64,000 bases of DNA from Escherichia coli (lineage in GTDB: Bacteria; Pseudomonadota; Gammaproteobacteria; Enterobacterales; Enterobacteriaceae), in NCBI RefSeq assembly GCF_013122565.1, contig NZ_CP053258.1. The stretch is one strand, 5' to 3'. Shown here one piece after another: positions 40,819-47,703 of this stretch. A program made the position numbers and the translations under genes. The notes beneath the pieces were generated by a model. That model was not told the DNA's origin and did not search any database. It was given only the letters and a program-made list of their open reading frames with translations. Positions within the stretch are counted from its first letter, which is position 1. The number at the start of each line of letters is the position of its first letter.

Positions 40819-41990
40819 GCAGGAAAGAATATTCCTTTATTGAAGTATGTGATATCCAAGGAGGAACTCAGCCTCCAAAGGACGAGTTTGTTTATGAAAA
40901 AAAAGATGGATATATAAGGCTTTTACAAATCCAAGATTTTAAAAGAGAGGATAAAACTGTTTATATTAAGGATAGGCATACTCTGAAAAAATGTAATGAC
41001 GATGATATTCTAATAGGTAGATATGGAGCATCTATTGGAAAAATTCTCTCTGGGTTATCAGGAGCATATAACGTTGCTTTGGTTAAAGCCATCCCTGATT
41101 TAAAAAAAATAAACAAGAGATTTTTATGGCATTTTTTAAACAGTGTAGTATTTCAAGAATTTATAAAAAATGTTTCTACTCGAGCCGCTCAAGCTGGGTT
41201 TAATAAGGATGACTTAGCAAAGCTAAAAATATATTTACCATCTTTAAATGAGCAAGTGAAAATTGCTTCTGTTCTTGATTTATCTGATGCCATACGCAAA
41301 AAACGAGAACAAACTATCAAACTGGCTGATGATTTTTTGCGTGCTACGTTTTTGGAGATGTTTGGTGATCCTGTTGAAAACCCTAAAGGATGGAAAAAGG
41401 ATAAAATAAAAAAAGGTGTGTTAGGCATTGCTTCAGGATGGAGTGCCACTGGAGAAAATATACCCTGTAAATCTGATGAATTTGGCGTGTTGAAAATCAG
41501 CTCGGTGACTTCTGGAGTATTCAAACCAGAAGAAAATAAAGTGGTAGCCTGTGAATCCATTCCCGCTTCAAAAAAACTTATTCACCCTAAAAAGGGAGAT
41601 TTGCTATTTAGTCGCGCAAATACCAGAGAGTTAGTTGCTGCGATATGCATGGTTCATCAGGATTATGACAACCTTTTCCTTCCTGATAAACTATGGTCTA
41701 TTAAGTTAAATCATAAGCTATTGCTACCAGAGTTCTTTCTCATCTTAATACAAAATGAAAAAGTCCGTGAGTTACTAACAAAACAAGCGACCGGAACAAG
41801 TGGGTCGATGCTAAATATATCTAAAAATAAATTTGAAGAAACTGAAATTATCTTCCCAGAGATCAATGTTCAAAAAGATTTTTGCAATACTTTCAGAAAA
41901 ACAATAAATTTGAAAACAAAGTTAATAAAAAGTAATGAATTAGCTAATGAGTCATTTAATTCATTATCTCAAAAGGTATTTCAGCAATGA
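40815..41990 (+). CDS. hsdS: Type I R-M specificity subunit
   Basis: 391 aa with two target-recognition-domain halves; GTG start overlapping hsdM stop (GTGA) with GGAGGGGA RBS; AT-rich. Confidence 0.8.
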   Translation: MSRKEYSFIEVCDIQGGTQPPKDEFVYEKKDGYIRLLQIQDFKREDKTVYIKDRHTLKKCNDDDILIGRYGASIGKILSGLSGAYNVALVKAIPDLKKINKRFLWHFLNSVVFQEFIKNVSTRAAQAGFNKDDLAKLKIYLPSLNEQVKIASVLDLSDAIRKKREQTIKLADDFLRATFLEMFGDPVENPKGWKKDKIKKGVLGIASGWSATGENIPCKSDEFGVLKISSVTSGVFKPEENKVVACESIPASKKLIHPKKGDLLFSRANTRELVAAICMVHQDYDNLFLPDKLWSIKLNHKLLLPEFFLILIQNEKVRELLTKQATGTSGSMLNISKNKFEETEIIFPEINVQKDFCNTFRKTINLKTKLIKSNELANESFNSLSQKVFQQ

Positions 41991-43678
41991 AAATTGTTTA
42001 TACACCTGATCGATCCTGGAGAGAAATCCCACCAGCAAAACCAGAACTTGGTGATGTTTTATCTCTGAGCAGTAATAATTGGGATGACTATGGATATAAA
42101 ACTACTCTAAACGCAAAAATATACATTAAGAATCAATCTATTTCATTTGATTTTTCAATTAAATTATTAATTGAAAATATCGATAACACGGCAATAAAGC
42201 TAGATGAATTATGTAAAGATGGATGGGATGGAATATTCCCCATCCCTAATACTAACTATATAGCTCTTCCATCTGATATTGATTTTTATCAAATACTCAT
42301 ATCTAAAATAGGTGAGGAATCAACAGTCAATCTTCTGAATGATCTGAACGATGCAGGTTTCAATAAAAATGTTTACCATAATGAAATATCTAACAGACTC
42401 ATAGAACAAGATGCCTTTAAAACGTCATTACTCCGAGAAAGTGGAGCAAATAAAGCCTATCTAGACGGTTATCTGATATTCCAAAATATTCACGCAGAAA
42501 TAAGAAACTTTCAGTTAAATATTTTAACGAAAAAAGGAGGTGTAAATAAGATACCATTTAAATTTGAATCTAATTTATTGCCTTATGATATTAATGTTAT
42601 TATTGGCCCGAATGGGATTGGTAAATCTCATTGCCTGAAATCACTTGTTGAATATTGGTTGCAAATAGGAATGGGGGAACAACGATTACTTGAAAAGAAT
42701 AAGCATACTCCATTTGATGAACGACCTAACATAAGTAAGCTTGTTCTTGTTTCTTATAGCCCTTTTGAAGAGTTCAGCCTAGATCTAGAAAAAGACAATT
42801 TACAAGATAAAAAGGCATATCAATATTTTGGTTTCAGGCAAATGAGAGATAATGGGACAATTGGTATCAGTCGAAACTTACCAGCTTTAAATTCAAGTGA
42901 GTCATTACTTGAAATGATATCTGATGATAAGAAATACCAATTCATTGAAAATCGAATAAATAAGCTCAACTCTGTCGATTCTGCACTCAAATCTGCTATT
43001 AGCTATGATTATTGTGTTCTAAGATTATCTCCAGAAGATAACTCATCTTATCTCGGGAAAGATATTGTCATAATTGATGGCGAAAAATATCTCCCTGCAG
43101 TAAATATTGTAAAATGGGCTGATCATTTAGATTTAATAAGGGATTCTATACTACTCAATGATGGTGTAATCTTTGTTAAAGATGGGGAAATTGTAAATCT
43201 TAGTTCTGGCCAACGATTATTTGTATATATAGCTATTAATGTTGTCGGTGCAATGAAAGAAAATAGCTTAATTGTGATTGATGAACCTGAATTATTTTTA
43301 CATCCTAACCTTGAAATAGAATTCATTGGGCTACTAAAAAAATTACTTAAATCATTTCGCTCTAAAGCTATTCTAGCTACTCATTCCCTATCTATCACAC
43401 GTGAAGTACCGTCAAAATGTGTACATATATTCCGCTACAAGGATGACGAATTTGAAATAGTCCCCCCGCCATTTGAAACATTTGGCGGTAATGTTCAGAG
43501 AATTTCTTCTTATGTTTTCGGCGATAAATCGATCTCTAAGCCTTTTGATGAATGGCTTGAGATGCAGCTTCAAGCTATTAAAGATCCTGAAAAATTAATT
43601 GAAATGCTAAATGAAGAAATTAATGAAGAAATAATCATGAAAATCATGAGTTTAGGGAAAAAGTATCATGGTCACTAA
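41987..43678 (+). CDS. ABC/AAA-type ATPase (563 aa) with an about 200 aa N-terminal domain of unknown function; Septu PtuA-like
   Basis: Walker A GPNGIGKSH near residue 208; Walker B-like VIDEPELFLHP; ATGA overlap with hsdS stop. Confidence 0.55.
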   Translation: MKIVYTPDRSWREIPPAKPELGDVLSLSSNNWDDYGYKTTLNAKIYIKNQSISFDFSIKLLIENIDNTAIKLDELCKDGWDGIFPIPNTNYIALPSDIDFYQILISKIGEESTVNLLNDLNDAGFNKNVYHNEISNRLIEQDAFKTSLLRESGANKAYLDGYLIFQNIHAEIRNFQLNILTKKGGVNKIPFKFESNLLPYDINVIIGPNGIGKSHCLKSLVEYWLQIGMGEQRLLEKNKHTPFDERPNISKLVLVSYSPFEEFSLDLEKDNLQDKKAYQYFGFRQMRDNGTIGISRNLPALNSSESLLEMISDDKKYQFIENRINKLNSVDSALKSAISYDYCVLRLSPEDNSSYLGKDIVIIDGEKYLPAVNIVKWADHLDLIRDSILLNDGVIFVKDGEIVNLSSGQRLFVYIAINVVGAMKENSLIVIDEPELFLHPNLEIEFIGLLKKLLKSFRSKAILATHSLSITREVPSKCVHIFRYKDDEFEIVPPPFETFGGNVQRISSYVFGDKSISKPFDEWLEMQLQAIKDPEKLIEMLNEEINEEIIMKIMSLGKKYHGH

Positions 43679-44594
43679 GTTACAACTTCCCGAATATGAC
43701 TCTATTAAGGTACTCCGAACCATCATTTCAGAAAGAGAGAGATATAAAGATTTCTATGATAGCTTATCGAATGATTGGATAGCACATGTAGAAAGCTATT
43801 TGGAACATCATGGTGATCCACGCTTTATTACACCTCTCGACCTCTCTCTGTATATTTCAGAAGAATTAGTACAAAATGAAGAAGAGAAAACAACTGATGC
43901 CAATAGGCATATATCGGCGCAAGAAAGACTGACGCAAAAAAGGAAACAAACTCTAATTAATTTATACTCTCCTGCTGAGGGGAAAACTCCCTACGATATT
44001 CTTGATACTTTAAGACGAGGACATGGCCTGTTATTTTGCCCATGTTGTGGGGAACCAGGAAAGCCGACAACGTTAGACCATTATTTGCCTAAAACTATCT
44101 ATCCTGAATTAGCTATAATTATTGCTAACTTAACGCCGATGTGTAATGAATGTCAGCAGAATAAAAGTTCTGATTATTTTGATGAGGATGGTAACAAAAT
44201 TTACATACATCCTTATTTTGATCCTATTGAACAAGTTAATTTAATCATTGATATAGAAGAACCCTATGCTACTCCAACATTCAGGCTAAACATTACTGAG
44301 GATGGTGATGATAATGAGATTTATGAATTGCTAAGGCGACATATAAATGGTGTTAAATTTTTAGAGCGATTCGATGAGTTTTGTCGAAATGAATATATGG
44401 CATTATTGCGCACAATGTCATTAGAACGTCAAGATGCTCAACCGGATAGAGCGTCAAGAATAATTTGTCGATTCAAACGCCAATATGAGGGTCAGTCTCC
44501 AAATAGATGGGAGGCTATTTTCTATAGAGGGATATTGAATAATGCCGACCTACTTAATTATCTAGATCATGGAAACTTGCCTGATTTTACATAA
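43668..44594 (+). CDS. HNH nuclease-domain protein (308 aa); Septu PtuB-like
   Basis: HNH motif CPCCG...LDHYLPK...NLTPMCNECQQNK; start overlaps ATPase gene by 11 nt with AGGGAAAAAG RBS. Confidence 0.55.
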   Translation: MVTKLQLPEYDSIKVLRTIISERERYKDFYDSLSNDWIAHVESYLEHHGDPRFITPLDLSLYISEELVQNEEEKTTDANRHISAQERLTQKRKQTLINLYSPAEGKTPYDILDTLRRGHGLLFCPCCGEPGKPTTLDHYLPKTIYPELAIIIANLTPMCNECQQNKSSDYFDEDGNKIYIHPYFDPIEQVNLIIDIEEPYATPTFRLNITEDGDDNEIYELLRRHINGVKFLERFDEFCRNEYMALLRTMSLERQDAQPDRASRIICRFKRQYEGQSPNRWEAIFYRGILNNADLLNYLDHGNLPDFT

Positions 44595-44842
44595 GAGTTA
44601 AATATATTACATCAATCAAAAATTGATAACGATTTCATAATGATAAAATTAAAACAAAGGCATTTACTGTTATTTTAATTATATATATAAGACAGATACA
44701 ATGCCTTTTAATTTCTATAAGACTGTTTTTCTCATAAAAATCACTTTATATAGATTAAAAACACCATCCAATAAAGCATCATTCTACTTTCATAGATACT
44801 ATAATAACAAAATTAACATTATTTCATGTTTTTTAAGCAAGC

Positions 44843-45847
44843 TTAATAATAATTATAGTATAACCGTTTAATTGCCTTGTTTAATATAGTTTCATACTCA
44901 TTTTCTGACATATTCAACCAAGCAGTTATACTTTTTAATCCACTAGACTGATAATCTATAAACTCGCGCATTTTATTATAATCAATACTTACCTGCGTGT
45001 TTGTATCAGCTATAACTTTAGGTTCCCCATTACACCACCCTAAAATAAGAAAACTACTCATTGTGCTTGACATGTCACAAAAGAAAAAAAGATCGGGTAT
45101 TATTTTACCTAATTGCTTTGCATAACTGACTACCTCAGGTATTTCAAGCAACTCTCTGGGGTCATCATCATACCCCCCAAATAATATTTCAACCTTACCC
45201 TGTTGACTATAAGCAAATTCCTTTGTCACTTTTAGTCTTTTAAAAATGCTAATGACAAAACCAAAATCAAATCTTAAAACATCTTCTTTAGGAATAATTA
45301 GGCGAGTGATATCTATATTCTCATTAAATATTTTGTTTACACACCAAAACATTTCAAACTCAGAGTAATAATCAACTTCTTCAGGAAGAAGTGCCAATAT
45401 CTCATCTCTACTATCAATCAATTGACGTTTTGGAATATTAATCTTCCATGATTTTTTTGTTCTTTCAATTTTGATAGGATCAAAATATTCCCAAAACACT
45501 TCTTTTTTTTCAGGATTGCAAAGCAAAATCAAAACAGGTATTGGGCAGTTGGATAAATAATTAAAGTGCTTATTTTCACCTCTGTAAACATATCCCCACC
45601 GATTTTCTTCCGAAAAAAATGAAGCTCCACATTTGATTTGTACAGCAAGCATTTTCCCCGTTACGGCTCCATCTTCTCGTACTATTTCGATATAACCATC
45701 GATACCGAAATCCATTTCTTGATGGTTTATCTTAAAAATCCATCCAAGATTTTCATTAATTACTGATTTTACTATATTTACTCCAAGCTCACCTAATTGA
45801 GCTTCTTTTTGGTATTTTGGGAATTTATCTATCATAAAAAACCTCAA
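44843..45847 (-). CDS. Uncharacterised protein (334 aa) with possible restriction-endonuclease-like (PD-(D/E)xK, DUF4365-like) N-terminal domain
   Basis: Putative D...E.K-like motif (DFGIDGYIEIV...AVQIKCG); AT-rich gene flanked by AT-rich spacers next to integrase. Confidence 0.4.
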   Translation of the reverse strand: MRFFMIDKFPKYQKEAQLGELGVNIVKSVINENLGWIFKINHQEMDFGIDGYIEIVREDGAVTGKMLAVQIKCGASFFSEENRWGYVYRGENKHFNYLSNCPIPVLILLCNPEKKEVFWEYFDPIKIERTKKSWKINIPKRQLIDSRDEILALLPEEVDYYSEFEMFWCVNKIFNENIDITRLIIPKEDVLRFDFGFVISIFKRLKVTKEFAYSQQGKVEILFGGYDDDPRELLEIPEVVSYAKQLGKIIPDLFFFCDMSSTMSSFLILGWCNGEPKVIADTNTQVSIDYNKMREFIDYQSSGLKSITAWLNMSENEYETILNKAIKRLYYNYY

Positions 45848-46150
45848 ATTTCAAAAAATATATTAACCGTAACTATCCATTTTAACTAGTTGGCATTTTT
45901 AGCGCCTGAATTTATCTCATGTATATATCTCGCAATGAACATTACAGTGATTAAGCATTAAAAATTATTAAACGAGAATGTTCATAATGATATTTATGTT
46001 TTAGACATTATTGTAAACATCCTTATATTCTACTCCATCCGTACTAGTAGAAGGTATTATAATAACAATAGTACTCAACGACCAACTAGCCCTCTTGGGC
46101 TAGTTGGTCATCATGATATTACAATCAACCAAAAAATAAAGGCATTCAAG

Positions 46151-47419
46151 TCACTCGCCATTACCCCGATTGATCTTCGCATAGTCAAACGGCGTAATCG
46201 CTCTCTCCCGATTGGCATCCAGAAAATCAGCCCACCACTGCAACATCAGCTTGCGTTCATCCAGGTGTTCCGCTTTATGGATATACGCCGCCCTCACTGA
46301 ATTGCGTTCCATATGGCTCATCTGCCTTTCCACCGCATCCTTCGACCATAGTCCTGACTCAATTAGCGAACTACAGGCCATTGTGCGGAAACCGTGACCA
46401 CAAACTTCAACCTTAGTGTCATAGCCCATCACCCGTAGCGCACTGTTTACGGTGTTCTCGCTCATGGGCTTACGCGGATCGTGATCGCCAATAAAAATCA
46501 GCTCATGCTCACCACAGAACTGCTTTATCTGCTTCAGGATCGCCAACGCCTGCTTTGAAAGTGGCACCAGATGCGGTGTACGCATCTTTGATCCTCGCTG
46601 AGAATGTTTAACATCAGGAATGGGTTCACGTTCCGGTGGAATCGTCCACATCGACGTGTCGAAATCTATCTCCGACCAGCGGGCAAAACGTAGCTCGCTG
46701 GATCGAATAAAGATAAGCAGGGTAAGTTCGGTTGCCCAACGGGTTAATCGCCTTCCAGTATAGCTGTCTATTTTCTGAAGCAGTTCTGGAATACGCTTTA
46801 ACTCCAGAGCCGGGCGATGCTGTCGCTTGCCAGAAGCAACGGCTCCCGCCATCTCTTGAGCCGGGTTATAATCAATCAGTCCACTTTGCACAGCATAACG
46901 CATGATAGCCGTGGTACGTTGTTGGAGACGGGAAGCCACCTCAAGACGTCCAGATATCTCTACGGCTTTAATGGGAAGTAACAAATCACGGGTACTCAAT
47001 TCAGCAATATTACGTGTCCCAATCGCCGGAAAGACATTATCCTCCAGACTCTTTTTTACACGATTAGCATGATCTTCCGACCATTTTTGGTTGGTCACGA
47101 GCCACTCTCTGGCAACCTTCTCGAAAGTAATAATCTCTTTCGCCTGCTCTTCTTTCACAACACGCTTATGTTCGCGTGGATCGATACCAGCAGCTACCAG
47201 CTTTCTGGCCTCCTCCCTTTTCTTCCTGGCATCTGCCAGTGAAATTTCGGGGTAAACACCAAACGCCATCACATGCTGCTTGCCACCAAAACGAAAACGA
47301 AATCGCCAATATTTGGAGCCATTAGCATGTACCAGTAAAAACAGGCCATCACCATCAGATAGCGGGTTTGCATTATCTTCAGATTTTGCCGAACGGACTT
47401 TAGTATCAGTCAGAGCCAT
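46151..47419 (-). CDS. intB: P4-type tyrosine integrase
   Basis: 422 aa; typical P4 integrase N-terminus (MALTDTKVRSAK) and C-terminal catalytic region (HGFRT, Y); directly downstream of leuX 3' end. Confidence 0.9.
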   Translation of the reverse strand: MALTDTKVRSAKSEDNANPLSDGDGLFLLVHANGSKYWRFRFRFGGKQHVMAFGVYPEISLADARKKREEARKLVAAGIDPREHKRVVKEEQAKEIITFEKVAREWLVTNQKWSEDHANRVKKSLEDNVFPAIGTRNIAELSTRDLLLPIKAVEISGRLEVASRLQQRTTAIMRYAVQSGLIDYNPAQEMAGAVASGKRQHRPALELKRIPELLQKIDSYTGRRLTRWATELTLLIFIRSSELRFARWSEIDFDTSMWTIPPEREPIPDVKHSQRGSKMRTPHLVPLSKQALAILKQIKQFCGEHELIFIGDHDPRKPMSENTVNSALRVMGYDTKVEVCGHGFRTMACSSLIESGLWSKDAVERQMSHMERNSVRAAYIHKAEHLDERKLMLQWWADFLDANRERAITPFDYAKINRGNGE

Positions 47420-47618: not shown

Positions 47619-47703
47619 TGGTGCCGAAGGCCGGACTCGAACCGGCACGTATTTCTACGGTTGATTTTGAATCAACTGCGTCTACCGATTTCGCCACTTC
47701 GGC
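47619..47703 (-). tRNA. leuX: tRNA-Leu (CAA)
   Basis: Reverse complement reads GCCGAAGTGGCGAAATCGGTAGACGCAGTTGATTCAAAATCAACCGTAGAAATACGTGCCGGTTCGAGTCCGGCCTTCGGCACCA (85 nt, CAA anticodon, CCA end). Confidence 0.95.

Follow-up and report, generated by a model that had tools for sequence, protein, structure and literature searches.

A stand-alone two-domain gene, probably encoding a Divona-type anti-phage nuclease, in the defence slot of an Escherichia coli tRNA-Leu island

An AT-rich gene lying next to the integrase of an Escherichia coli tRNA-Leu island raises the question of whether it encodes a defence protein that acts on its own, and of how such a protein could be switched on. We addressed this question in a 64,000-nucleotide stretch of E. 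coli contig NZ_CP053258.1 (assembly GCF_013122565.1), hereafter the window. The initial annotation of this stretch had read the ORF as a single-gene defence or abortive-infection protein with a possible DUF4365-like, PD-(D/E)xK-type fold, and both its observation and its interpretation proved essentially right; what it missed is the part of the protein about which least is understood, a Crr6-like domain at the C-terminus.

The gene and its flanks

The ORF is real and runs uninterrupted through positions 44843-45847 (-), where the ORF list counts 334 codons from a TTG, the length first assigned to it. However, we discarded this TTG (45847), which overlaps the ribosome-binding site, in favour of an ATG 12 nt further in that both PGAP and RefSeq use. 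This ATG (45835-45833) is preceded at a distance of 6 nt by a Shine-Dalgarno-like GAGG (45842..45845, -), read directly from the sequence, and is the likely start of a CDS at 44843..45835 (-; stop codon 44845-44843) for a 330-aa protein with DUF4365 and Crr6-like domains, in all probability of the Divona type discussed below. The 330-aa product is an exact match to RefSeq WP_250880431.1 from E. coli, and PGAP annotates the same product in related E. coli genomes. A consensus scan further gave a candidate sigma-70-like promoter at 45857..45885 (-), with TTAAAA and TATATT separated by a 17-nt spacer. This is weak evidence because the region is AT-rich, the scan having returned 15 sites where chance alone would give 10.2 +/- 3.3.

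The gene has a GC content of 31.6% (GC3 25%), and the flanking core genes have ~50-56%. Neither of its flanking spacers, of 248 bp and 315 bp, holds a partner ORF of at least 25 aa with a plausible role, which indicates that the gene stands alone, and an Rfam scan of the flanks returned the tRNA-Leu, one sub-threshold chance match and nothing else. Conservation of the family, together with a dN/dS of ~0.3 between two E. coli alleles, an estimate with just 16 differences behind it, argues that the ORF is not a chance one. It had also been suggested that the gene could prove to be a degraded fragment of a larger ORF, or to lack homology to nucleases. Neither turned out to be so: homology was found (see below), and the full-length relatives are equal to it in size.

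The strong hairpin that had been noted beside the gene is likewise real, and lies at 46080..46109 (-) as a context element outside the gene itself. It consists of a perfect 13-bp stem (46080-46092/46097-46109), which can be extended to 16 bp, and a 4-nt loop, with a z-score of -5.5 relative to shuffled sequences. It stands 42 nt after the stop codon of the integrase, and is kept in the island of E. coli strain 1500 (locus L015, 25493-25523), where the cargo differs and one stem pair has changed from T:A to C:G in a compensatory manner. Given that it is kept beside the integrase whatever the cargo, the hairpin belongs to the integrase module and not to the gene studied here, and we rejected it as a terminator or regulator of the latter on the same ground. 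The terminator scan did not call it since no T-run follows, and from its sequence it is not a canonical terminator; it may act at the 3' end of the integrase mRNA or as a site bound by a protein.

A slot for exchangeable defence cargo

The integrase, of the P4 type, occupies positions 46151-47419, 315 bp upstream of the gene, and abuts a tRNA-Leu(CAA) gene at 47619-47703. At its other end the gene is convergent with an HNH gene that ends at 44594, across a gap of 248 bp. The placement first given to the ORF, between the integrase and a restriction-modification (R-M) operon, thus holds on the integrase side, but on the other side a two-gene AAA-ATPase/HNH system (41987-44594) intervenes between the R-M genes and the ORF. 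This PtuA/PtuB-like pair, on the + strand after hsdS, codes for an AAA-ATPase of 563 aa and an HNH nuclease of 308 aa, which match the PADLOC models PDC-M01A (E 5e-239) and PDC-M01B (E 1e-107) almost end to end, with a weaker match to Septu PtuA. Its start overlaps the stop codon of hsdS, and the pair is apparently transcribed together with the Type I R-M genes.

The GC profile, PADLOC and the BLAST breakpoints delimit a low-GC variable cargo segment at 40820..46040, comprising hsdS, PDC-M01A/B and the gene under study; the low-GC block as such spans ~40.8-46.1 kb between flanks of 50-56% GC. Around it the island has a backbone common to other E. coli tRNA-Leu islands, with CbtA/YeeU, DUF932, WYL, GTPase, hsdR and hsdM genes on one side and the integrase on the other. 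In a BLAST comparison with strain 1500, similarity ends at 40819, which is the end of hsdM, and resumes at 46135 (from ~46040 by direct alignment). Within the slot (L015, 17547-25500) strain 1500 has a different hsdS, Dsr1, a 5'-nucleotidase and a phosphorothioate-dependent restriction enzyme. The presence of different defence cargo in the two strains marks this location as a hotspot for such cargo, and the gene is an exchangeable cargo of the slot between hsdM and the integrase of the leuX island. Among 5426 complete E. coli genomes 51 carry the gene, in every case on the chromosome and in this same island.

Not all E. coli alleles are intact. A T/G homopolymer tract, TTGGGGGG, at 45173..45180 (-), within the codons of a conserved GGYDDD motif, is the site of a 1-nt frameshift. 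The window (45173-45181) and one further locus (L001) read TTTGGGGGG here, and locus L002, from E. coli C7, reads TTTTGGGG (reverse strand, ~9950). In the TTTTGGGG allele the frame shifts within GGYDDD and the protein ends at 234 aa. This truncated version is the commonest E. coli allele, found on 609 contigs as against 97 for the commonest intact allele; many E. coli genomes have it, the OXA-244 ST131 strains C7 and C9 among them. Its predominance indicates that function is not under selection to the same degree throughout E. coli, and the frameshift may reflect either simple decay or a switch prone to slippage. In the OXA-244 carbapenemase strains (in C7, NZ_CP059279.1, at L002, 5430-8669) an IS1-flanked blaOXA-244 transposon lies between the HNH gene, which is truncated there, and the frameshifted copy of the gene under study; such a transposon in the same island has been described before (PMC9225575). 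OXA-244 lineages have the frameshifted gene beside a resistance transposon, an arrangement that bears on how phage-susceptibility and resistance traits travel together.

Two domains in a widespread family

The possible DUF4365 or PD-(D/E)xK fold of the initial annotation was borne out by profile searches. Pfam DUF4365 (PF14280) matches residues 16-143 with an e-value of 1e-35, and in sequence searches of the PDB the N-terminal part alone found matches, namely three SPARDA effector chains (9qbq, 9qbp and 9jsb, the NbaSPARDA DREN-APAZ protein), with e-values of 8e-7 to 5e-5 and alignments that end at about residue 120. When the profiles are aligned, D46, Q66 and K68 are the positions opposite the GIDG aspartate and the QIK motif in 9jsb_D, and the equivalent residues of NbaSPARDA (D41, Q60 and K62) are catalytic (PMC12205087). 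All three positions are invariant across an alignment of 105 homologues, and the window allele keeps every residue that is invariant in this family. The domain falls within the PD-(D/E)xK nuclease superfamily, and its structural neighbours are Hjc and I-Ssp6803I, as they are for the SPARDA DREN domain. By these comparisons the N-terminal 148 residues (45392..45835, -) are a DREN/DUF4365 nuclease domain with an intact predicted D46...Q66-x-K68 set, the putative catalytic codons being 45700-45698 (D46), 45640-45638 (Q66) and 45634-45632 (K68), all on the - strand.

The remainder of the protein, residues 149-330 (44846..45391, -), is a predicted acidic alpha/beta domain resembling Crr6/DUF1817. 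Its conserved core reads GYDDDPRELxEIPEV and includes an invariant D225 (45163-45161) and R227 (45157-45155). The Pfam Crr6 model (PF08847) matches WP_250880431.1 weakly over residues 183-256 (e-value 0.0018), and the similarity is family-wide: 56 of the 105 homologues match at E<=1e-3 (best 1.1e-7) and 96 at E<=0.1. PGAP accordingly names close alleles 'DUF4365 and DUF1817 domain-containing protein'. In a search of NCBIfam no family scored above its cut-off, the Crr6 model NF038024 giving 19.7 bits against a cut-off of 125. The pI of the domain is 4.6 (family median 4.8), which speaks against DNA binding, and a PDB search with it gave no match to a DNA-binding fold. Neither the PDB searches nor the literature searched produced a solved structure or a biochemical study of a Crr6/DUF1817-like domain. 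Foldseek found the same domain fused to NucS-C (~695 aa) or HNH (428 aa) nucleases, or alone (150-175 aa), and its occurrence with different nucleases or by itself is what one expects of a regulatory or sensor module whose effectors can be exchanged. The same fold also occurs in proteins whose annotation is immunity protein Imm5 or DUF4123.

In a representative library clustered at 50% identity the family comprises 276 clusters at E<=1e-30, with full-length members of 326-350 aa. These come from Gamma- and Betaproteobacteria, Nitrospirota, Acidobacteriota, Methylomirabilota, Planctomycetota, cyanobacteria and others, such that the two-domain architecture and the length are conserved over many phyla; the nearest relatives, from Pseudoalteromonas and Shewanella, are 63-66% identical. 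The searches of other collections were far sparser. A contig scan with one query sequence gave a single locus, from Rhabdochromatium; ten 343-348-aa representatives taken from the 1.84-billion set were all metagenomic proteins; plasmid and phage collections held almost no full-length members, and the protein had no match in PHROGs. The one relative found in a scan of viral contigs is a 336-aa protein with 30% identity on IMGVR_UViG_2684622596_000002 (L017, 5986-6996), a low-GC phage contig on which this family member directly follows tail-fibre, holin and amidase genes, a typical moron position.

In each of six other contexts that we examined the relatives are solo genes, usually surrounded by further defence genes, and their neighbours are never the same. 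These are GmrSD and Shedu at one locus (L004); GAP1 / DO-GTPase / GASH and PIN at a second (L006); two reverse transcriptases (DRT), VspR and Kiwa in Pseudoalteromonas (L008); an OLD-type ATPase and transposases in Luteibacter (L010); and, in Burkholderia and Gallionella, plain housekeeping genes around a single insertion. The differing neighbours and the lack of a partner ORF together point to an autonomous gene without a conserved partner. A small gene of the HTH_3/XRE type lies immediately upstream on the same strand in Pseudoalteromonas (L008, 7487-7813) and Luteibacter (L010, 7662-7958), and may be a regulator in some lineages; it is absent from the window.

This combination of domains has a known counterpart. 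In a screen of Vibrio cholerae integron cassettes, Darracq et al. (bioRxiv 10.1101/2024.07.02.601686) described Divona, in which one protein combines an N-terminal DUF4365 nuclease with a Crr6 domain (PF08847), the latter by their account not previously seen in defence. Divona is cassette 69 of the N16961 integron, VCA0374 (a locus tag also given in a 2026 cassette paper), and it blocks phage 24, also when placed in the first integron position. Of the nine systems active in V. cholerae, eight led to lysis or a halt in growth when the MOI was high, and the preprint text gives no growth phenotype specific to Divona. The same preprint states that in E. coli the homologues of Divona, for which blastp matches at E<1e-5 had to cover at least 50% of the query, are within 20 kb of integrases. 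The earlier guess of a single-gene defence or abortive-infection function is therefore in keeping with the literature, in which the DUF4365 plus Crr6 combination is a validated system.

The features that typify Divona are found here, namely a DUF4365 domain, a Crr6 domain (weak in this protein) and an autonomous single gene. Both genes lie on mobile elements, and E. coli homologues are found near integrases; they differ in that the present gene is in a tRNA-Leu integrase island and Divona in an integron cassette. The order of the two domains is that of Divona. A model of the C-terminal domain matched by Foldseek a DUF4365 protein of V. cholerae MO10 (A0A0X1L232; E 1.8e-9, TM 0.75), which at 345 aa is similar in length to the 330 aa of the present protein; however, when the structures are aligned, identity over this domain is only about 22%. 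A profile search of a set of 5.8 billion proteins had no Vibrio protein among its best 120 matches, and a 232-aa fragment considered as a candidate for the V. cholerae Divona proved to be of the Pseudoalteromonas type and was set aside. Because the two domains are combined as in Divona, the gene is solitary and close to an integrase, and the C-terminal domain has a structural match in V. cholerae, we consider it very probable that the E. coli gene encodes a Divona-type defence nuclease. It is an intact E. coli member of a known architecture, for which both the family and the proximity to integrases in E. coli have already been published.

Other characterised proteins resemble parts of this one. 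SPARDA effectors share with it a homologous N-terminal nuclease with the same D...QxK residues (D46/Q66/K68 against D41/Q60/K62 of 9jsb_D), but the E. coli protein has a Crr6-like domain in place of APAZ. Pfam detects no APAZ domain in it, and no Argonaute gene is adjacent: the neighbours are the HNH gene and the integrase, and PADLOC has no Argonaute models there. Sensing by guide RNA is therefore not expected, and a remnant of a SPARDA system was rejected for the same two reasons. The Crr6/slr1097 maturation factors of NdhI (PF08847, NF038024) share the weak family-wide similarity over residues 183-256, including the GYDDDPRE strand. Unlike these stand-alone proteins of ~150 aa, whose NCBIfam threshold lies far above the score obtained here, the present domain is part of a 330-aa fusion to a nuclease, is found sporadically on mobile elements, and is also present in organisms without a photosynthetic NDH complex. 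As a one-gene effector of PD-(D/E)xK type in a defence island, the protein is also comparable to other such defences from slots beside integrases, for instance Shedu and PD-(D/E)xK Abi proteins, and to the PADLOC candidate PDC-M02A. It has no Shedu (DUF4263) signature, and its best PADLOC match to PDC-M02A (E 1.5e-6) covers residues 41-116 against a 170-position model, falling short of full length; PDC-M02A proteins are of ~170 aa with DUF4365 only, and it is the nuclease core alone that matches.

Proposed function and its alternatives

Taken together, these comparisons make a Divona-type anti-phage role probable for the gene, which would act through one polypeptide on its own and forms part of the exchangeable cargo of the tRNA-Leu island slot. 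As to how it might act, the best guide is the SPARDA nuclease domain, which is inactive as a monomer and becomes a collateral, non-specific nuclease of DNA and RNA once it has tetramerised on the SPARDA filament (PMC12205087). The principle of a nuclease turned on by forced oligomerisation is probably shared, as far as homology allows us to infer. The acidic Crr6-like domain would then be the sensor or regulatory module, replacing APAZ/Argonaute as the input; it probably binds protein, as Crr6 assembly factors do, and could hold the nuclease monomeric or occluded. A phage-derived cue would cause the protein to self-associate, the assembled DREN domains would degrade nucleic acids indiscriminately, and either growth of the infected cell would stop or the phage genome would be destroyed ahead of progeny. 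We put forward this scheme, in which the Crr6-like domain drives cue-triggered self-association and thereby non-specific cleavage, as a plausible but tentative one that is rather more apt to be wrong in some part than right: the sensor role, the switch by oligomerisation and the abortive end of the infection are all carried over from systems in which the partner of DREN (APAZ/pAgo) differs greatly.

A different mode of action would be that of a direct restriction nuclease like the Type IV/Mrr enzymes, in which the C-terminal domain reads a feature of the incoming DNA (a modification or a structure) and only the invader is cut, with no collateral damage or growth arrest. The placing of the nuclease in the Mrr/RecB-like group of PD-(D/E)xK enzymes would fit this, as would its location next to a Type I R-M system in a slot that in the sister island holds a phosphorothioate-dependent restriction enzyme. 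Nevertheless, a domain as acidic as this one, with no DNA-binding fold match in the PDB and with Crr6 assembly factors as its sole sequence relatives, is a poor candidate for a reader of DNA, and the closest characterised nuclease domain, DREN, is collateral and non-specific; we therefore regard restriction of this type as unlikely. The location of the gene also admits the reading that it is not autonomous but a third component of the neighbouring Type I R-M and PDC-M01 AAA-ATPase/HNH genes, since all 51 carrier E. coli genomes have it in the same island beside them. The convergent transcription across 248 bp, the six other contexts in which relatives have no AAA/HNH or R-M neighbour, the two-gene form in which PADLOC models PDC-M01, and the V. 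cholerae homologue that acts alone from a single integron cassette all go against it, and we hold it to be the least probable of the readings considered.

Nor do we give much more weight to the view that the gene is a selfish or addictive module, in which a toxic nuclease and an immunity-like domain stabilise the island, or else is decaying cargo without function. The occurrence of the C-terminal fold in Imm5- or DUF4123-annotated proteins and the prevalence of the frameshifted 234-aa allele (609 contigs against 97) are what this view has in its favour. However, the window allele is intact and retains all family-invariant residues, its dN/dS is ~0.3, the architecture is conserved over many phyla, and one member of the family, that of V. 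cholerae, is demonstrably anti-phage, which renders such an origin very improbable.

A Divona-type anti-phage function thus being the preferred reading, the gene offers a way into the mechanism of a system that has been shown to work, as it is an intact member in the most tractable host. The predicted catalytic residues D46, Q66 and K68 and the invariant D225 and R227 are the precise residues to mutate, and the questions it could answer are what the Crr6-like domain senses and whether the oligomerisation-gated logic of SPARDA operates without an Argonaute.

More broadly, one could conceive of the Crr6/DUF1817-like domain as an uncharacterised but widespread infection-sensing or autoinhibitory module that is swapped among nucleases (DUF4365/DREN, NucS-C and HNH) and gates them by controlled oligomerisation, with stand-alone plasmid copies serving as decoys or inhibitors and the T/G tract turning the function on or off among E. 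coli lineages. We consider this generalisation doubtful as a whole, and offer it as a conjecture. A stand-alone version of the domain does occur on the Xanthomonas citri plasmid pXAC219 (L014, 3950-4468), where a 172-aa protein is homologous to the C-terminal domain only, with 26% identity. That it could be an inhibitor or decoy of Divona-type defences is pure speculation. The protein keeps a DGYxDDPR motif, and its gene lies among small plasmid genes and adjoins one for an LPD1-domain protein; a similar stand-alone copy is present on seven further Xanthomonas plasmids.
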